Below are positions 1-38,213 of a stretch of DNA of 64,000 nucleotides, piece after piece; positions within the stretch are counted from its first letter, which is position 1; every line of letters begins with the position of its first letter. This DNA is from an uncultured Elusimicrobia bacterium (GTDB lineage Bacteria > Elusimicrobiota > Elusimicrobia > FEN-1173): contig CAYZXT010000001.1 of NCBI GenBank assembly GCA_964482515.1, positions 102,403 through 166,402 on the forward strand. Direction: 5' to 3'. The notes under the pieces were generated by a model that made no database searches, was not told the origin of the DNA, and worked only from the letters and a program-made list of their open reading frames with translations. The translations under genes were made by a program, and so were the position numbers.

Positions 1-645
1 CTGCAGCCCCGGGTCCTGAAATGGGGAATACTGGGCGCGCTGGTCATGCGGTTCATCCTGATACTGGTGGGCGCGGCCCTTATAGAACGGTTCCACTGGA
101 TACTGTATATTTTCGGGGCGTTCCTGATTTACACGGGCATCAAGATGGCTTTTCAAAGCGAGAAGGAAGAATTCAATCCGGAGAAAAATCCTTTCTTCCG
201 ATGGATCACCCGTCTGATGCCGATCACCAAAGTGCAGGATGGCCGCTTTTTCGTGAAGGAAAACGGCGTCCGCCACGCCACTTCGCTTTTCCTCACGCTG
301 GTGGTGGTGGAACTGTCCGACCTGGTATTCGCCCTGGACTCCATCCCGGCGATCTTCGCCATCACGACGGATACCTTCCTGGTGTATACTTCCAATGTTT
401 TCGCCATACTTGGTCTGCGCGCTCTTTATTTCCTTTTGAGCGGATTGGTCCAGATATTCCATTACCTGAAATACGGCGTGGCGTTCATCCTGGCTTTCGT
501 CGGCGTGAAGATGCTCCTGTCTTACGTCTACCACATCTCGACGTTCGTTTCGCTCTCCGTCATCGTTGGAGTGTTGGCTCTGTCCGTGGCCGCGTCGTTC
601 GTTTTTAAGCACGCCGATGCGGCCGAAGTAGAAGGAGGAAAATGA
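1..645 (+). CDS. TerC family integral membrane protein (5' end outside window)
   Basis: Frame 1 is open from nt 1 (LQPRVLKWGILGALVMRFILI...) into listed ORF 46..645. Multi-TM protein with TerC-like segments (DLVFALDSIPAIFAIT, SNVFAILGLRALYF). Confidence 0.8.
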   Translation: MQPRVLKWGILGALVMRFILILVGAALIERFHWILYIFGAFLIYTGIKMAFQSEKEEFNPEKNPFFRWITRLMPITKVQDGRFFVKENGVRHATSLFLTLVVVELSDLVFALDSIPAIFAITTDTFLVYTSNVFAILGLRALYFLLSGLVQIFHYLKYGVAFILAFVGVKMLLSYVYHISTFVSLSVIVGVLALSVAASFVFKHADAAEVEGGK

Positions 646-2756: not shown

Positions 2757-4703
2757 ATGGCGGACATTACCTCGGTTTTGCATGAAAAACGTCTCTTCAG
2801 ACCTTCTGCCCAATTCTCCAGGTCCGCGCACGTCAAAAGCCTCGCGGAATATTATCGGATATACAAAGATTCCATAAAGCACCCGGAAAGATTTTGGACC
2901 CGGCAGGCCTCGCAGCTCCATTGGTTCAGGCCATGGCGCAAAGTCCTCCAATGGAAACCGCCTTTTGCCCAATGGTTCGTCGGAGGAAAACTCAACGCCT
3001 CCTATAACTGTGTGGACCGCCACCTGACGACGTGGCGGAAGAACAAGGCCGCCATCATTTGGGAAGGGGAAACCGGCGAGCAGCGCGTCTACACCTACAT
3101 GGATTTGTATCGGGAGGTCTGTAGCCTGGCCAACGCGCTCAAACGTTTGGGCGCCAAAAAAGGCGACAGGGTTTGCTTGTATATGCCGCTGGTCCCCGAG
3201 CTCACCGTGGCCATGCTGGCCTGCGCGCGCATCGGCGCCACCCATTCCGTCGTCTTCGGCGGTTTCTCGTCCCACGCCATCCGCGAGCGGATCATCGACG
3301 CGGGCTGCCGCTTCGTCGTGACCGCGGACGGCGGGTATCGCCGCGGCGCGATCATCCCGTTGAAGAAGAACGTCGACGAGGCGATCCAGGACACGCCGAC
3401 CGTGGAAAAGGTCATCGTGCTGCGCCGCACTGGCGAAGAGGTCCCCATGCAGCCGGGCCGCGACGTTTGGTGGCACGACGTCATGGCGGAAGGCATCGCC
3501 GATTGCCCGGCGGAGCCGCTGGATTCCGAACACCCGCTTTATATCCTTTACACCTCCGGCAGCACGGGAAAGCCCAAGGGGATCCTTCATACCACCGGCG
3601 GTTATCTGACCCAGGCGGCCTATACCACGAAGTATGTTTTTGATTTGAAGGAGGACGACGTCTATTGGTGCACTGCGGACATCGGTTGGGTGACCGGACA
3701 TTCCTATGTCGTCTACGGCCCTCTGGCGAACGGCGCCACCGTGGTCATGTACGAAGGCGCGCCCAACTGGCCCGAGCCCGACCGTTTCTGGAAGATCATC
3801 GATAAATACAAGGTGACGGTTTTTTATACCGCCCCCACCGCCATCCGCGCGTTCATCAAATGGGGCGGGGAGTGGCCGGCGAAGCACAACCTCTCCAGCC
3901 TCCGTCTCCTCGGCACCGTCGGCGAGCCCATCAACCCCGAGGCCTGGATGTGGTACCGGGACGTGATCGGCGGCGGGCGCTGCCCCATCGTGGACACCTG
4001 GTGGCAGACCGAGACCGGCGGGATCATGATCTCTCCGTTGCCCGGCGCCACTCCGCTCACGCCCGGGTCCGCCACTCTGCCTTTGCCAGGCATCGACGCC
4101 GCGGTGGTGAACAAGCAGGGGAAAGAAGTCCCGGCGAACGCGGGCGGCTATCTGGTGATCCGCAAACCGTGGCCCGGGATGCTGCGCACGATATTCGGCG
4201 ACAATCAACGCTACAAGAAACAGTACTGGAGCGAGTTTCCCGGCATGTATTTCGCGGGCGACGGCGCGCGCCGCGACAGGAACGGCTATTTCTGGATCAT
4301 GGGCCGCATCGACGACGTCATCAAGGTGTCGGGCCATCGGCTCGGCACCGCCGAGATCGAGAGCGCCCTGGTGAGCCATGATTTCGTGGCGGAAGCGGCG
4401 GTTGTGGGCCGGCACGACGATGTCACGGGCGAGGCCGTGGTGGCTTTCGTCACGCTGGAAGGCGACGTCATGCCCACGCATCAATTGAAAGACGAGCTCC
4501 GCCAGCATGTCACCAAGGAGATCGGTGCCATCGCCAGGCCCGCGGAGATCCGTTTCACGGACGCGCTGCCGAAGACGCGCTCCGGCAAGATCATGCGGCG
4601 GCTGCTGCGCGACATCGCGGCCGGCCGCGAAACCACGGGCGACACCACCACGCTTGAGGATCTGAACGTATTATCCCGCCTCCGCAAAGAGGAAGAGGAA
4701 TAG
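2757..4703 (+). CDS. acs: acetyl-CoA synthetase (AMP-forming)
   Basis: 648 aa. AMP-binding motif [32 protein letters not shown]-terminal [21 protein letters not shown] upstream. Confidence 0.95.
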
Positions 4704-24052: not shown

Positions 24053-24285
24053 AGTTTCCTCCGTTCGTTCTATGGGAAAAAGGCGGGTTATTCGATATTG
24101 ATATCATAATTTTGGCAGAGCCGGGAGGCGTTGACCATGATGCGCGTCATAATTATGGATTTCATCCGCCGCATATTTATGACCTGTGTCATATTCCCTC
24201 CGGTTTTCGCATAATATACTGACTCCGCGAAGTTTATTTATGGATGCGGCGAGATGCGTGCGCCATAATAAAAGGAGATCACGAA

Positions 24286-29739: not shown

Positions 29740-30408
29740 ATGTCGCTGGAAACCAAGAAATTCCTCAGCACGATCACGCCCTTCAGCATCCTTCCCGACG
29801 TCGAACTCGACCGCCTGTCCCATTTCGTCTTCAAACGCACCGTCGAGCCCGGCGAAAAGGTCTTCGCGGAGGGGGACAAGGCCCATGTGACGTGGGTCGT
29901 GCAGACCGGGCAGATGAAGATAACGAAGATGGCCTTTGACGGCAAGCCGCTGACCGTGGAAATGATCCGGCCCGGGGAAGTCTTCGGCTGCGTCGGCTGC
30001 ATCGATTCCGGGTTTTATCCCTGCGAAGCCACGGCCTCCCTCACGGCCGTCGTGATCGGCATTCCGACCCAGGACTTCCTCTCCCTCGTCGAGCGCTATC
30101 CCAAGTTCGCCCGCGGCGTCTATATGGAAATGGGCGCGCGGGTGCGCGAGGCCCAGAACATGCGGACGCTGGCCCTGCATTCCGTCGAAAAGCGGATCGC
30201 CGGCGTGCTGCTGTGGCTTCGGGGGAAGTTCGGCGATACGCTGCCCTTCACGCGGCAGTCCATCGCCGAGATGGCGAACACGACGCCCGAATCCACGATC
30301 CGGACCATGATCCATCTCCGCAAGAAGGGCTACATCAAGACCGCCTGGAAAAAGATCATCCTGCAAAAGCCCGACGAGCTGAAAACCCTCCTCGAAGAAA
30401 TCCAATAG
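29740..30408 (+). CDS. Crp/Fnr family transcriptional regulator
   Basis: cNMP-binding-like beta-roll (GEKVFAEGDKA...) and a C-terminal HTH (TRQSIAEMANTTPESTIRTMIHLRKKGYI). No N-terminal Fnr Cys cluster. Confidence 0.85.
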   Translation: MSLETKKFLSTITPFSILPDVELDRLSHFVFKRTVEPGEKVFAEGDKAHVTWVVQTGQMKITKMAFDGKPLTVEMIRPGEVFGCVGCIDSGFYPCEATASLTAVVIGIPTQDFLSLVERYPKFARGVYMEMGARVREAQNMRTLALHSVEKRIAGVLLWLRGKFGDTLPFTRQSIAEMANTTPESTIRTMIHLRKKGYIKTAWKKIILQKPDELKTLLEEIQ

Positions 30409-30467
30409 AGCAATTATGACAGGCGTCATAGATAGGGCGCCGCCATCCGGGCTAGACTGTCGGCAGA

Positions 30468-30887
30468 ATGGCTCATCCAATATTCATTCAGTCGATGTTG
30501 AAAGAGCAGCGCGCGGCCTCGAACGCATGCCGCGTGTGGATCACTCCGCAACGCCCCAAGCACGAGAAGGCCTCCGACCATAACGTCTGGATGCCGGAGC
30601 TGGCTCCGGAAGAAGAGATCCTCAAGCTCTTAAAGTCGGGCAAGATGGCCTGGGCCGAGTTCGAGGCCTACTATCAGGCCCGGCTGGGCTCCGCGTCCTC
30701 CCAGGACGACCTTCGCGCGCTCGCCTGCCTTTCCCAGGACACCGCTTTGATGCTGATGTGCGGCTGCGCGGACACCACGCAGTGTTATCTTCCCGTGCTG
30801 GTCCACGTGATCCAGGAATACCGCGAGCGCAAGGACTTCAAACTCTCCCTCGGCGATTTCAACGATTGGCTGAAGCGCCAATGCTGA
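30468..30887 (+). CDS. DUF488-like protein
   Basis: RVWITPQRPK...VWMPELAPEEEILK...WAEFEAYYQARL...LMLMCGC follows the DUF488 pattern (tentative). The stop overlaps the next start (ATGCTGA). Confidence 0.55.
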   Translation: MAHPIFIQSMLKEQRAASNACRVWITPQRPKHEKASDHNVWMPELAPEEEILKLLKSGKMAWAEFEAYYQARLGSASSQDDLRALACLSQDTALMLMCGCADTTQCYLPVLVHVIQEYRERKDFKLSLGDFNDWLKRQC

Positions 30888-31972
30888 CCGCGCTGGCGCT
30901 GGACGCTTCCCCGCGGGCCAACGCGAAGGTCCGCCTCTTCTCCCGCCTCAAGATCGCGGACCTGCTCCAGGTGCCCGAGAACGAGATGGCCCGCGTCATC
31001 CGGGACCTGGAAAAAGACCCCGTCTTCAAAAAGTTTTTGGGCCTCGAGGGGAGTTCCTACCGCATCTTCCATCGCCAACGCTACGCCGGAACGCAGATCT
31101 CCGGACGCTTCTACGACCTGCAGGAAGACTTCCTGTCCTCGGAAGGACGGTTCGACGCCCAGGGGTTCCTGGCGAGCCGCTCCTCCGCCATCGCGCTGAT
31201 CCGGTCCATCGGGAAAACCGACTTCGAGCGATACTTCCTCTACCAGCAGGCCGGAGCCAGCCGGTCCGAAACCGCCGAGACACTGGGGATCACGCCGGCC
31301 CAGGTGGACGACGTTTTCGATTTCCTTTTGGAATTTTCCGTGCAGGCGGAGTTCATCCATCACAGTTCTTTGCGTACGGAAAACGCTTCCCGCCCGGTCT
31401 GCCTGGGCCGCATCGAGGGCAATGCGCTGGACGGATTTTCCCTGGCCTGCTTCCTGCCCCACATGGCGCGGGGGAAATACCGGATCGACTACGACGCCTG
31501 GAAGGAGCTGCGCGAGAGGGAAGCCCTGCCGCCGGAGGACATCAGGCGCGGTTCCCAGATCATCCAGGAAGTGGAGATGATCAACCTGCGCTCCGACAAT
31601 TTTCACCGCGCGTTCCAGGAATCCCTGCAGACCGCCCGCGCCTATCTGGCGACGGGCCGCCCGGAGAAGCAGCGGGTCCTGAGCCTGCGCGAAGCGTCAC
31701 GGCGGATCGGCGTTTCCTCCAGCACGGTCTGCCGCCTGGTGGCGGGGCGCAGCGTCATCCTGCCCTGGGGCGAGGAAGTCATGCTGTCCCGGCTGTTCCC
31801 TCAAAAAAAACAGGTGCTCTGCGAGATCCTCAAGAACCGCCAGGCGGAAATTTCCGAGGCCGGTGACGGCGACGTGCAGCGGTTCCTGTTGCGCGATTAT
31901 CAGCTCCGCGTGCCGCGCCGCACCGTCAATTATTGGCGCGGCCGGCTCCGCGGGAATGCGGGGGCGGCGTGA
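30881..31972 (+). CDS. short, divergent sigma-54 (RpoN)-like protein, 363 aa
   Basis: - C-terminal LSLREASRRIGVSSSTVCRLVAGRSVILPWGEEVMLSRLF matches the sigma-54 HTH region pattern.
- RVPRRTVNYWR resembles the RpoN box ARRTVAKYR.
- N-terminal LLQVPENEMARVIRDLEKDPVF resembles the LLQL...EL...NP.LE segment. Confidence 0.6.
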   Translation: MLTALALDASPRANAKVRLFSRLKIADLLQVPENEMARVIRDLEKDPVFKKFLGLEGSSYRIFHRQRYAGTQISGRFYDLQEDFLSSEGRFDAQGFLASRSSAIALIRSIGKTDFERYFLYQQAGASRSETAETLGITPAQVDDVFDFLLEFSVQAEFIHHSSLRTENASRPVCLGRIEGNALDGFSLACFLPHMARGKYRIDYDAWKELREREALPPEDIRRGSQIIQEVEMINLRSDNFHRAFQESLQTARAYLATGRPEKQRVLSLREASRRIGVSSSTVCRLVAGRSVILPWGEEVMLSRLFPQKKQVLCEILKNRQAEISEAGDGDVQRFLLRDYQLRVPRRTVNYWRGRLRGNAGAA

Positions 31973-32823
31973 AAAGGACATCGGACGGACTCGGCCGGCT
32001 CCTGGGGCAAAGCCCGGCGATGGCGGCCGCGTTCAAACTGATCAAGAAAGCCGCGCCGACGGAAGCGAACATCCTCCTTCAGGGCGAAACCGGCACGGGC
32101 AAGGAACTGGCGGCCCAGGCGCTGCACCTGCATTCGAACCGCGCGGCCGGGCCCTTCGTGCCCGTGGACTGCGCGAGCCTGCCCGAGAATTTGCTGGAAG
32201 CGGAGCTCTTCGGAAGGGAAAAAGGCGCCTACACCGACGCGCACCAGTCCCGGCCCGGCCTCCTCGAAGCGGCGGACGGGGGAACGCTTTTCCTCGACGA
32301 GATCGGCGACATGCCGCTGGCGCTTCAAACGAAGCTTCTGCGCGTGATCCAGGAGAGGCAGATCCGCCGGCTTGGGTCCAACCGGTTCCTTTCGCTGAAC
32401 GTGCGGGTCATCGCCGCGACCCACCGCAACCTCGAGGAGATGGCGGCCCAGAAGAAATTCCGCCAGGACCTCTATTACCGCCTCAACGTCATTTCGATCC
32501 CGCTCCCGCCGTTGCGCCACCGGGCCGGCGACGTCGACTTCCTGGCGCGGCATTTCCTCCAGCAATTCTCCAAGGCCTATGGCCGCGGCATCGACGGTTT
32601 CGACGATTCGGCCATTCGCCTTCTACGGTCTTACTCCTGGCCGGGCAACGTGCGGGAACTTCAGAACGCCGTGGAGCGCGCCGTGGCCCTCGCCGAGGAA
32701 CGCCTGATTCACCCCGATGATTTGCCGGAACAAATCCGCCGCCCCGTCCTGGAGGCGGGCCGGGTGGACGAAATGCTGGACCGCCTCTCTCCGCTGCGAA
32801 AAGAATTCAACAGCTCCCACTAA
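31969..32823 (+). CDS. sigma-54-interaction AAA+ domain protein (bEBP core only; no sensor and no DNA-binding domain)
   Basis: - Walker A GETGTGKE and Walker B TLFLDEIGDM.
- The GAFTGA position reads GAYTDA.
- FRQDLYYRLNV and WPGNVRELQN are present.
- GTG 31969 overlaps the upstream stop (GTGA); TTG 31933 is the listed alternative. Confidence 0.85.
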   Translation: MKRTSDGLGRLLGQSPAMAAAFKLIKKAAPTEANILLQGETGTGKELAAQALHLHSNRAAGPFVPVDCASLPENLLEAELFGREKGAYTDAHQSRPGLLEAADGGTLFLDEIGDMPLALQTKLLRVIQERQIRRLGSNRFLSLNVRVIAATHRNLEEMAAQKKFRQDLYYRLNVISIPLPPLRHRAGDVDFLARHFLQQFSKAYGRGIDGFDDSAIRLLRSYSWPGNVRELQNAVERAVALAEERLIHPDDLPEQIRRPVLEAGRVDEMLDRLSPLRKEFNSSH

Positions 32824-32889
32824 AAAAGATACCGACCCCGAAAACTGGGAAGTCCTTCGGCGACTTGCTATAATTTCCCAAGACCAGCC

Positions 32890-35750: not shown

Positions 35751-35905
35751 GCATCGGGGTGGCCAAAAACATTGCGATTTATAGGTTTATAACGTTTGTT
35801 GGATGGAAATGCGCAGCTTTCATGATTTAGATCATGGTTTTCCGACGGTGGCGGGAGTAACCTTGTACTCATTGATTTTCACGCGCGATATCCCGAGGGG
35901 GAAGC

Positions 35906-36241: not shown

Positions 36242-36778
36242 GTGAATAAAAAGGTCGGACTATTTTTTCTCATGATGTTCAGCCTCATCGCCTGTAACAA
36301 GGTGTCCCAGCCGCCCGCCCTCTCACGCCAGTTCACAGACCAGCAACTCACCGCCGATTTTCCCTCGGACCTGGGGCCAGAGCGGATCGACGTTGCCGCC
36401 TACCCTCCCGAACAACAATCGGGTTACGACCTCTTCGTCCAAAAATGCGGCCAGTGCCACACGCTGGCGAGGCCCATCAACGCGGCCCTGAGCACCGAAG
36501 AGGAGTGGACCCGCTATATCGAGCGGATGCACGGAAAGGCGGAAAGCCGCTTCAAGGAAAAGACGATGACCGCCGATGAGGCGAAGAGGATCGTCGAGTT
36601 CCTCGTGTTCGACTCACGGGAGCGCAAATTGAACCACCCGCAGGAATTTCAACGGCAGCAGGAACAGCTCCGGGAAATGTTCAAGGCCGTCCAGGAAGAA
36701 CGGACGCGCGTTCAAAACCAGGAGGGCCGCGAGAAAGCCCGCGAATCCGCGCCCTATATGGGCGACAAACCTTCCTAG
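36242..36778 (+). CDS. monohaem c-type cytochrome lipoprotein
   Basis: GTG start after GGGGGAG. Lipobox LIAC. Single CGQCH haem motif with a distal Met candidate (IERMH). Confidence 0.7.
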   Translation: MNKKVGLFFLMMFSLIACNKVSQPPALSRQFTDQQLTADFPSDLGPERIDVAAYPPEQQSGYDLFVQKCGQCHTLARPINAALSTEEEWTRYIERMHGKAESRFKEKTMTADEAKRIVEFLVFDSRERKLNHPQEFQRQQEQLREMFKAVQEERTRVQNQEGREKARESAPYMGDKPS

Positions 36779-36923
36779 TGACGCTTTTCCAGCCCCGCGG
36801 TTCGACGCCAAACATCCATCCTGAAAAAAGTTTTCCCTATTTATGACGCCGGTCATAGTTGAACGTATGGACTTGTCGTATCTTTGAAGAGGAAGGACTA
36901 AGTTTTGTTTTGCATCGGGAGGG

Positions 36924-38213
36924 ATGCTTGACGAACGAACGTGTCGACAGCTGCGGAGCGATCGGATCATGATGCCGGCGAGCCCGCGGCTTATTTTTTG
37001 GGAAACCACGGCGGGCTGCAACCTCCGGTGCACCCATTGCCGCCGGCTCGACGTCATGGACGCCGTGTCCCGCGACGACATGGACACCGCCCGCGCCAAA
37101 GCCTTCATCGACGATATTTCCTCCCACTATAAACCCATCCTCGTGCTCTCCGGCGGAGAACCGCTTTTCCGAAACGATATTTTAGAGCTGGCCGCCCATG
37201 CCCGCGACCGCGGTCTGCGCGTGGCCCTCGCCACCAACGGCACGCTGGTGACGCGGCAGAAGGCCAAAGAAATCAAGGTGGCCGGCATCGCCCGCGTCAG
37301 CATCTCTTTGGACGGCGCGCGCCCCGAGTCCCACGACCGCATGCGCGGCGAGGGGAATTTCGTCCGCGCCCTGGAAGGCTTCCGCCACCTCTCGGAAGAA
37401 GGCGTCAGCCTCCAGGTCAACATGACCGTCACCCGCCACAACGCCCACGAGCTCCCCGAACTTTACGAGAAATGCCTGGACTTGAAAGCCGACGCCCTCC
37501 ACCTCTTCATGCTGGTTCCGGTGGGCTGCGGCGTTGAGATCGCGGACACGGACATGCTGCCCCCCGTGGAATACGAGAAATGGCTCAACTGGTTTTACGA
37601 CCGGGAATGGGAAGGCAGGATCGAGATGAAGGCCACCTGCGCGCCCCATTATTTTCGCATCGTCCGCCAGCGGTCGCACGAGCATGGCGGACTCACGCCG
37701 AGCCACCATCGCCAGATGTCCAAAGGCGGACGTCCTTCCACGTCCGAGCCCTCCGGCGTTGGCGCCGGCGAGAGCCACGGTCATCAGGCGCTGCACCAAA
37801 CGACCAAAGGCTGTTTGGCCGGTTCCGGCGTCGCCTTCGTTTCCCACAAAGGCGAAGTCTTCCCCTGCGGATACCTTCCCTTGACCGCCGGCAACGTCCA
37901 TCAGCAATCCTTTCAAGATATCTGGGAAAACTCCCCCGTCTTTCAAAAACTGCGCCAACCGGATCTGCTTGAAGGCAAATGCGGCGAATGCTCCTTCCGC
38001 TTCGTCTGCGGCGGTTGCCGCGCGCGGGCCTATTATCAAAGCGGCAGCGAACTCGCCGAGGAACCGTTTTGCGTCTATGAACCCCCGCATAAAGAACAAT
38101 CCTGCTGCGGCTCCGGCCAGGGGAATTGCGATTCGAAGGGTTCATGCCACGCTGCCGCGCCGGTCAATTTCCTCCGAGACATCCCGCATTTCCCCATCGG
38201 GGGGCGGCCATGA
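36924..38213 (+). CDS. radical SAM/SPASM protein of the AhbD/NirJ (haem b / haem d1 maturation) type
   Basis: FWETTAGCNLRCTHC (C-x3-C-x2-C). SPASM region GCLAGSGVAFVSHKGEVFPCGYLP...GKCGECSFRFVCGGCRARAY...EPFCVYEP. The start may instead be ATG 36969. Confidence 0.8.
   Translation: MLDERTCRQLRSDRIMMPASPRLIFWETTAGCNLRCTHCRRLDVMDAVSRDDMDTARAKAFIDDISSHYKPILVLSGGEPLFRNDILELAAHARDRGLRVALATNGTLVTRQKAKEIKVAGIARVSISLDGARPESHDRMRGEGNFVRALEGFRHLSEEGVSLQVNMTVTRHNAHELPELYEKCLDLKADALHLFMLVPVGCGVEIADTDMLPPVEYEKWLNWFYDREWEGRIEMKATCAPHYFRIVRQRSHEHGGLTPSHHRQMSKGGRPSTSEPSGVGAGESHGHQALHQTTKGCLAGSGVAFVSHKGEVFPCGYLPLTAGNVHQQSFQDIWENSPVFQKLRQPDLLEGKCGECSFRFVCGGCRARAYYQSGSELAEEPFCVYEPPHKEQSCCGSGQGNCDSKGSCHAAAPVNFLRDIPHFPIGGRP

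Follow-up and report, generated by a model that had tools for sequence, protein, structure and literature searches.

A compact sigma-54-type factor and an AAA+-only activator in a predicted Crp/Fnr-controlled operon of an Elusimicrobia bacterium

Alone among bacterial sigma factors, sigma-54 depends on an ATP-driven activator, and its domain plan has been treated as nearly invariant. A gene trio from an uncultured Elusimicrobia bacterium raises the question of how much of that plan can be given up. Its middle gene encodes a sigma-54-like protein of 363 amino acids, and its neighbours encode a DUF488 protein and a bacterial enhancer-binding protein (bEBP) reduced to its AAA+ core. The trio occupies positions 30468–32823 of the window, by which we mean the whole stretch of 64,000 nucleotides that was analysed (GenBank assembly GCA_964482515.1, contig CAYZXT010000001.1, positions 102,403–166,402 of the forward strand). 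The original prediction had taken it for a self-contained alternative sigma/activator pair. Here we present an analysis of the three proteins, of their relatives in the phylum and of the DNA that surrounds them. On sequence and fold-model evidence the 363-residue protein is a sigma-54 relative, and its compact family stands in for canonical RpoN in Elusimicrobiota. Our preferred reading of the locus, to which we assign a probability of about 0.58, is a Crp/Fnr-driven operon that would supply the compact sigma factor together with an untethered AAA+ activator.

Organization of the gene trio

The three genes lie on the plus strand and overlap pairwise, and both the open reading frame (ORF) coordinates and the junction letters agree with what had been predicted. 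The first encodes a DUF488-N3a protein of 139 residues (PF22751; 30468..30887). The second, running from an ATG at 30881 to a stop at 31972 (30881..31972), encodes the compact sigma-54-type factor, in which we distinguish a Region-I-like N-terminal helix pair, a reduced core-binding region, an extra-long helix followed by a helix-turn-helix (HTH), and an RpoN box. The third encodes a bEBP AAA+ core with its lid (PF00158, AAA_lid_14), 284 residues when counted from a GTG at 31969 (31969..32823). The DUF488/sigma junction reads ATGCTGA (30881–30887) and the sigma/bEBP junction GTGA (31969–31972), with the downstream start codon inside the overlap in each case.

Two of the three starts are uncertain. 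For DUF488, a database entry begins nine codons later, at the alternative start 30495, and gives a protein of 130 residues. The bEBP reading frame is open already from 31933, and the copy in a sister genome is annotated from an internal Met, which gives 267 residues; a start at GTG or TTG is favoured by the conserved stretch GL-R--G-SP-M upstream of that Met. Contigs from two sequencing runs with metatranscriptomic library text (that they derive from RNA is a guess) match parts of all three genes identically, and one contig per run crosses the sigma/bEBP junction (31516–32099 and 31815–32153), which does not by itself show a single transcript. Only 66 nt of DNA lie between the bEBP stop and the next gene. 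A single operon is the best explanation for the trio.

A compact relative of sigma-54

The C-terminal part of the 363-residue protein is readily placed. Pfam Sigma54_DBD (PF04552) matches residues 231–308 with 28.8 bits against a cut-off of 22.8, and the same model matches all 28 family members that were aligned. The RpoN-box-like motif RVPRRTVNYWR is present, and its RRTVN core is almost invariant over the 28. The predicted sigma-54-type C-terminal HTH and RpoN box are thus borne out, and the possibility that no sigma-54 domain model would match at all is ruled out. A profile of the 28 members matches the Aquifex sigma-54 chain 5ui5_I with an E-value of 1e-19, and E. coli/Klebsiella-type chains at about 2e-11.

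To define how much of a canonical sigma-54 is retained, the family was aligned by hhalign with the 461-residue RpoN of genome G109, in which the activator-interacting domain (AID) spans residues 12–50, the core-binding domain (CBD) 102–289 and the DNA-binding domain (DBD) 304–460. Family columns 130–362 align onto RpoN residues 216–452 with a probability of 97.2%. The last ~75 residues of the CBD are therefore kept, and its first ~110 residues, together with Region II, have no counterpart. The family has an N-terminal consensus, L-S-x-S-E ... L-E-x-D-P-L-F, that by eye resembles Region I of the G109 protein.

The AlphaFold2 model of the protein (pLDDT 86.7, pTM 0.83) contains the N-terminal helices. 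In searches with this model, ranks 1–26 of Foldseek and ranks 1–29 of VIA were all sigma-54 chains. The best VIA match, 8f1i_M, has a Z-score of 12.7 and a root mean squared deviation of 7.3 over 224 aligned residues, and pairs residues 15..360 of the model with 12..469 of the chain. A Z-score of 12.7 is at the edge of the range that VIA considers safe for helical proteins and is borderline taken alone, so the fold assignment rests on the exclusively sigma-54 match list together with the sequence evidence. Profile and fold model together identify the protein as a sigma-54 homologue, for which binding to core RNA polymerase (RNAP) is predicted.

The compact family stands in for canonical RpoN

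A word-indexed search retrieved 40 relatives, nearly all of 333–374 residues, and the 28 that were aligned are conserved from end to end. A hidden Markov model search of 1.84 billion representative proteins gave at least 318 clusters (50% identity) at E<=1e-30; the best 150 of these are mostly 333–420 residues long and match profile positions ~5 to ~358. Because the family is conserved in length and is matched end to end, the length of 363 residues is not a start-codon artefact, and the earlier remark that the protein is clearly shorter than typical RpoN holds family-wide. A scan of metagenome contigs with the subfamily alignment found no relative. The related loci are labelled Elusimicrobia, Elusimicrobiota or Endomicrobiales in 18 of 23 cases. 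Three family members (L021, L023 and L025) are found on contigs of metagenome-assembled genomes labelled Dehalococcoidales, Clostridia and Chloroflexota, and in a quick tree they form one well-supported group with Elusimicrobia; this could reflect either mis-binning or horizontal transfer.

The source genome (2.9 Mb, 96% complete) contains two such genes. TIGR02395 and PF04552 each match in two places, the 363-residue gene and a 374-residue paralogue at C19:366–1490, both of which are below the TIGR02395 cut-off. Over the whole genome Sigma54_CBD (PF04963) has no match, its best hit lying at another place with E 0.117, and a canonical rpoN was not found. The prediction of an alternative sigma factor kept beside a housekeeping rpoN therefore has to be given up for this genome, in which both sigma-54-like genes are compact: the check for a second, canonical rpoN returned the C19 paralogue instead. 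Equally, a 27.6-bit TIGR02395 score, two paralogues and a conserved short length exclude a full-length, single-copy RpoN with a misread start. The two compact sigma factors fall in sister clades (quick tree, SH-aLRT 82). PF00158 has two strong matches in the genome, the bEBP of the trio and a gene with receiver (REC), AAA and HTH_8 domains ~6 kb downstream of the C19 paralogue. The C19 paralogue (L010, 366–1490) begins ~50 nt after a tRNA-like gene (241–315) and is followed by a HlyD-type gene, a two-component gene block, the NtrC-type bEBP and a 1681-residue protein with fibronectin type III (fn3) repeats, whose ORF has a CGGCAATTGTGTTGCA site 11 nt before it.

This composition is general in the phylum. 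Among 201 Elusimicrobiota genomes, each at least 80% complete, TIGR02395 was matched in 58, in all but one through its C-terminal part only; a single genome, G109, reaches the cut-off, and 57 of the 58 have no sigma-54 type other than the compact form. A strong PF00158 match is present in 56 of the 201. Sigma factor and bEBP occur together in 54 genomes, the sigma alone in 4, the bEBP alone in 2 and neither in 141, the commonest combinations being a single copy of each, in 23 genomes, and two copies of each, in 13. A bEBP AAA+ domain is encoded within 10 kb of the sigma gene at 51 of 84 sigma loci and within 2 kb at 35, on the same strand in 32 of these 35; since contigs are short, these figures are lower bounds. 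A bEBP beside the sigma gene, which had been singled out as a special feature of the locus, is thus a phylum-wide habit. The canonical rpoN of G109 (L034, G109:C163) sits on a small contig of a genome without a strong bEBP match, and could be either bin contamination or a real exception. Two large small-genome families of the phylum are nearly devoid of TIGR02395 matches (1 of 59 and 0 of 63 genomes). Elusimicrobium minutum is reported to lack sigma-54 and its activators in a 2011 survey (PMC3162934), and that statement agrees with the small-genome families, other lineages of the phylum having the compact form.

The bEBPs beside family genes keep GAFTGA-type loops (GAFTGA, GAFTDA, GSFTGA or GAYTDA). 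Near-consensus -24/-12 sites occur in noncoding DNA beside family genes at six loci (L012, L013, L023, L026, L029 and L040), and directly upstream of the sigma gene itself at two (L018 and L020). Given the co-occurrence and adjacency of bEBPs, their loops and these sites, a working activator-dependent sigma factor is the best reading of the family. At locus L045 (G000:C32), two divergent GGC-N7-TTGC-type sites (3502–3517 and 3604–3619) share one 214-nt intergenic region between genes for a receiver-domain protein and a GspE-N-like/receiver protein, and may be compact-sigma promoters. Among the papers retrieved on Elusimicrobia or Elusimicrobiota with sigma-54 or RpoN, judged from titles and the starts of abstracts, none describes a compact sigma-54; PMC12316311 does not mention the phylum Elusimicrobiota.

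An activator reduced to its AAA+ core

The bEBP of the trio matches Sigma54_activat (PF00158) with 237.1 bits and AAA_lid_14 with 94.4 bits, and contains Walker A (GETGTGK) and Walker B (LFLDEI) motifs. Neither Response_reg nor HTH_8 (PF02954) matches it at E-values up to 1. Aligned with REC-AAA and REC-AAA-HTH relatives, it retains the AAA+ core, Walker motifs and L1 loop, and the REC and HTH regions are cleanly absent. The stand-alone AAA+ core proposed at the outset is thus confirmed, with lid and without flanking domains.

The reduced form is shared. On one 14.8-kb contig of the sister genome, the sigma factor is 87%, DUF488 88% and the bEBP 85% identical to the proteins of the window, and that bEBP, of 267 residues, is likewise AAA-only and keeps the reduced architecture up to and including the C-terminal tail after the lid. 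The next relatives (62–70% identity) carry a receiver. Two of them, P0191 and P0193, end right after the lid without an HTH; P0190 shows, in the alignment, a Fis-like C terminus without a Pfam match, and the bEBP of genome G128 (P0194) has a Pfam HTH_8. As aligned, the clade shows stepwise domain loss with all AAA+ motifs retained.

For a bEBP that shares an operon with a sigma gene and has no DNA-binding domain, an enhancer-independent activator is the natural reading. On its own, the AAA+ domain of DctD works constitutively and independently of an enhancer (PMC3844500). The proposal of a self-contained pair without a DNA-bound enhancer survives in so far as the bEBP lacks a DNA-binding domain, and fails in so far as the sigma factor is not an extra to a housekeeping RpoN.

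A putative Crp/Fnr-dependent promoter

Directly upstream of the trio lies a gene for a Crp/Fnr-family regulator of 222 residues (29740..30408, plus strand; Pfam cNMP_binding, 55.9 bits, and HTH_Crp_2, 51.4 bits), probably the regulator of the downstream operon. Between it and DUF488 is a perfect palindrome, TATGACAGGCGTCATA (30415..30430; pattern TATGAC-N4-GTCATA), which is a candidate Crp/Fnr-type box. The box is 22 nt ahead of TAGACT, a -10-like hexamer read from the sequence (30453..30458, plus strand; 9 nt before the DUF488 ATG), and 37 nt ahead of that ATG. There is no -24/-12 site upstream of the trio; the operon begins with DUF488 behind the box.

The pattern is strongly enriched. With up to two mismatches it occurs five times in the window against 0.55 expected, and perfect copies number six in the source genome against 0.06 expected from base composition, every one of them lying no more than 250 nt from one or more ORF starts (the nearest at 36–75 nt). 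Besides the box of the trio, the window holds a second perfect copy (24178..24193) upstream of a cytochrome bd oxidase operon (ORFs from 24244), with a pyruvate:ferredoxin oxidoreductase (PFOR) gene divergent on its other side, and a third (36842..36857) 67 nt upstream of a radical SAM/SPASM gene at 36924, which is followed by hemA. The remaining three lie at C2:11059, C2:17362 and C36:12443; of the copies outside the window, one precedes a gene for an extracytoplasmic function (ECF) sigma factor and another lies in the intergenic region next to a phosphoenolpyruvate carboxykinase (PEPCK) gene. One-mismatch boxes are found at C8:36017 and C11:13551. The six perfect boxes define a small predicted regulon: the cytochrome bd/PFOR region, the trio operon, radical SAM–hemA, the ECF sigma gene and the PEPCK intergenic region.

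The arrangement is also conserved. Orthologues of the regulator are encoded directly upstream of DUF488 at locus L011 and in genomes G128, G188 and G150, each time with the box between the two genes, and the layout of box, ~21–22 nt and TAnnCT is repeated (TAGGCT in G128, TAATCT in L011, TATACT in G188 and G150). We infer from this layout a class-II-like Crp/Fnr-dependent promoter in front of DUF488, and an mRNA leader that would be very short or absent. With box and hexamer conserved in five genomes and the box enriched in the genome, the Crp/Fnr-type regulator probably gates the operon, and such a promoter is the probable input that had been overlooked in the original prediction.

DUF488 belongs with the Crp/Fnr gene

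DUF488-N3a (PF22751) matches the first protein of the trio with 61.1 bits against a cut-off of 27, and PF04343 matches with 43.1 bits. Residues C98 and C100, a C-x-C after the central strand, are invariant in nine aligned relatives. As modelled (pLDDT 83.1), the protein has a small alpha/beta fold. A wide VIA search returned 3g5j_B as its best match (Z 6.9) and many protein tyrosine or dual-specificity phosphatase and tetrapyrrole-methylase chains at Z 4–5.7; these weak matches are spread over a rhodanese-like N-terminal domain, cysteine phosphatases and tetrapyrrole methylase domains, and lie inside the VIA noise band. There was no sequence match in the PDB, and Foldseek returned nothing at E<=0.001. 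A cysteine-based enzyme or a redox-sensitive protein is plausible. Among the listed papers naming DUF488, judged from titles and the starts of abstracts, none is on its function. A search for papers naming both DUF488 and sigma-54 found none.

The Crp/Fnr gene adjoins DUF488 in all five genomes examined (the window, L011, G128, G188 and G150). A sigma gene follows in three of them, directly in the window and G128 and after two radical SAM genes in L011. DUF488 is thus tied more tightly to the Crp/Fnr gene and box than to the sigma gene: its place ahead of the sigma/bEBP pair and its family were correctly described earlier, and its linkage is rather to the regulator. In G188, the genes downstream of DUF488 were considered as cyd genes and proved not to be cyd.

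The G128 sigma factor falls in another clade of the family than that of the window (quick tree). Its cassette is followed by a -24/-12-like site, TGGCTGTTTTGTTGCT, before a 195-residue protein with a CxxCH motif, and this protein and the next gene, a radical SAM/SPASM gene, are homologous to window genes 36242–36778 and 36924–38213. The two window genes have no -24/-12-like site, and the second has a Crp/Fnr-type box instead.

Model and alternatives

In the model that we prefer, the trio would be transcribed from a sigma-70-type promoter activated by the adjacent Crp/Fnr-family regulator, the box being centred ~42 nt upstream of the predicted transcription start. The operon would yield a compact sigma-54-type factor, a bEBP stripped to its AAA+ core and a DUF488 cysteine protein. 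With neither a receiver that could keep it inactive nor an HTH that could anchor it at an enhancer, the AAA+ core would, once made, assemble in solution and from there remodel the compact-sigma holoenzyme. The signal would thus enter by transcription of the operon and not by phosphorylation of an activator. Binding to core RNAP, ATP-dependent activation and Crp/Fnr control are all inferred.

A bolder version can be put forward tentatively, and we doubt that it holds in full: the Elusimicrobiota would have a minimal sigma-54 that binds core RNAP through half a CBD and works in private sigma/activator pairs, and the locus would be an ECF-like switch in which a redox- or oxygen-sensing Crp/Fnr protein transcribes the sigma factor and an always-on, enhancer-free AAA+ activator, with DUF488 modulating.

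Several observations weigh against the preferred model, and they concern the sigma factor, the activator and the promoters in turn. Of the three Pfam sigma-54 models, the DBD alone is found: Sigma54_AID (PF00309) and Sigma54_CBD give no match to the 363-residue protein even at E-values up to 1, and the 25 families that match the 28 members most often include neither of them. For about 110 residues of the canonical CBD, no equivalent is detectable in the compact family, which is the divergence over the core-binding region that had been noticed from the start. The NCBIfam equivalog rpoN_sigma (TIGR02395) gives 27.6 bits against a cut-off of 277.35 and covers model positions 289–426 only. As hhalign left the N-termini unaligned, the likeness to Region I comes from the fold model and the by-eye motif only.

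These gaps would suit a protein that is no sigma factor but a DNA-binding regulator built from the DNA-binding half of sigma-54, without core RNAP binding, which the AAA+ protein remodels or by which it is recruited on DNA; such a regulator would also fit the failure to find -24/-12 targets in the genome. We consider it improbable. Residues 15 to 360 of the fold model, N-terminal helices included, superpose on complete sigma-54 chains, and the C-terminal part of the CBD is retained. Moreover, GAFTGA-type bEBPs would be left without any other sigma-54 across the phylum, in which 54 genomes have both partners and 1 of 201 has a canonical rpoN, and near-consensus -24/-12 sites lie beside family genes in other genomes.

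For the activator, the difficulty lies in its L1 loop and its relatives. The GAFTGA loop of bEBPs contacts sigma-54, and the loop of the trio bEBP, GAYTDA, is two positions off; GAFTDA and GAYTDA loops are also found in bEBPs neighbouring other family members. Relatives of the cassette have a histidine kinase and a receiver, some also an HTH, so the trio version could be decaying. The cassette would then be a remnant left after loss of kinase, receiver and HTH, its AAA+ stub and perhaps its sigma paralogue being without function, and only the C19 paralogue, paired with a complete NtrC-type bEBP, would still form a working system. That the C19 pair is complete and that no targets of the trio were found would fit such a remnant, yet the frames are intact and overlapping, all AAA+ motifs are kept, and box and -10 element are conserved and still in place. 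In addition, the reduced architecture is maintained at 85–88% protein identity in a second genome, C-terminal tail included, and REC-AAA forms without HTH in the same clade indicate that domain loss is recurring and not a one-off accident. We give decay only a slim chance.

As to target promoters, the window contains no convincing -24/-12 site and no excess of them (77 loose matches against 67.7 expected), as had been noted for TGGCAC-N5-TTGC on first inspection. Nor did the genome-wide check reveal an excess: GGC-N7-TTGC[AT] occurs 12 times in the noncoding DNA of the genome against ~14 expected, and the orthologous locus L011 has 14 matches against 12.1 expected. Scans of the source genome for TGGCAC-N5-TTGC-type sites gave two perfect matches against ~7 expected, one at C45:206 and one at C1:167044, the latter inside a GspE-like gene. 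A TGGCC...TTGC candidate at 35760–35775 was dropped for its 11-nt spacing instead of 10, and the variant TGGCA-N4-TGATGC, found twice in the genome (one copy seemingly coding) and once in L011, was judged not robust. The operon promoter and binding to the Crp/Fnr box are themselves read from the DNA alone.

A third alternative is that the module works without being self-contained, its promiscuous AAA+ core, when induced, also firing the promoters of the C19 paralogue and so acting as a global booster of compact-sigma promoters. In Salmonella, nearly all sigma-54 promoters respond to an AAA+ domain that has no DNA-binding domain (PMC3844500). The sister-clade placement of the two sigma factors (SH-aLRT 82, quick tree) and noncoding -24/-12-like candidates at C19:8820, just downstream of the C19 bEBP gene, and at C32:13103/13001 point the same way. 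Against this, the phylum-wide 1:1 counts and the close proximity of sigma and bEBP genes speak for dedicated pairs, and the L1 loops differ (GAYTDA in the trio, GAFTGA in the C19 bEBP); we think such a booster unlikely. The reading that we retain is the Crp/Fnr-driven operon for a compact sigma factor and an untethered AAA+ activator.

Genomic neighbourhood

Downstream of the trio are genes for an Rrf2 regulator and then a class-V aminotransferase. An extended -10-like element, TTGCTATAAT, at 32850–32889 just upstream of the Rrf2 gene suggests that these two genes have their own sigma-70-type promoter and are outside the trio operon. The wider window is rich in redox, haem and Fe-S functions (PFOR, cytochrome bd oxidase, radical SAM enzymes, hemA, multihaem cytochromes and an MtrB-type porin). 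At L040 (G128:C2, ~4440–4670, minus strand), a short NifU-like ORF separates the bEBP gene from a -24/-12-like site; the corresponding place in the window holds the Rrf2 gene and a cysteine-desulfurase-like gene, and both loci point to an Fe-S theme.

Implications and comparison with known systems

A phylum-wide sigma-54 that is ~100 residues shorter, without Region II and half of the CBD, would show which parts are essential to bind core RNAP and to impose the block that the activator relieves, and its small size would make it attractive to structural biologists. The locus adds to this a naturally occurring AAA+-only activator, encoded by a gene that overlaps the gene of its probable sigma partner and is placed under a predicted Crp/Fnr-type promoter. 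Such a sigma-54 circuit would be regulated through transcription of the sigma/activator pair instead of through the activator protein. Paired, mutually divergent sigma/activator sets may also interest builders of orthogonal sigma-54 expression systems.

The canonical sigma-54 (RpoN/SigN) of Aquifex aeolicus and of E. coli/Klebsiella (5UI5, 5NWT, 8F1I) has an overall topology like that of the compact fold model, and both co-occur with bEBPs. The compact factor has 363 residues, however, against 461 in the only canonical RpoN found in the phylum (G109), lacks Region II, shows no detectable counterpart of the first ~110 CBD residues, and has an NCBIfam score a tenth of the cut-off. Housekeeping rpoN is usually found with lptB/hpf/ptsN-type genes, whereas the compact gene adjoins a bEBP.

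Several bEBPs can dispense with the enhancer or with a sensor domain in cis, as the bEBP of the trio would. Chlamydia CtcC is reportedly a natural bEBP without a DNA-binding domain; Helicobacter FlgR also lacks one, and PspF and HrpR/S lack a regulatory domain. Each of these misses one flanking domain, whereas the bEBP of the window misses both. No PspA- or HrpV-like trans-inhibitor is evident at the window locus, unless DUF488 has that role. A parallel in architecture is DctD250, the engineered AAA+ domain of Sinorhizobium DctD (PMC3844500), an AAA+ core likewise without regulatory or DNA-binding domain and of similar size (250 against 284 residues). DctD250 is a laboratory truncation, whereas the AAA+ protein of the window is the product of a natural gene that is conserved in a sister genome and overlaps the sigma gene of its probable partner.

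Multiple rpoN paralogues with cognate activators are known from Rhodobacter sphaeroides (RpoN1–4) and Xanthomonas (rpoN2–fleQ), which resemble the present genome in having more than one sigma-54, each genetically linked to a particular bEBP. Those paralogues are full-length, whereas both of the paralogues in the window's genome are compact and the pairing of sigma factor and bEBP is the rule across the phylum.

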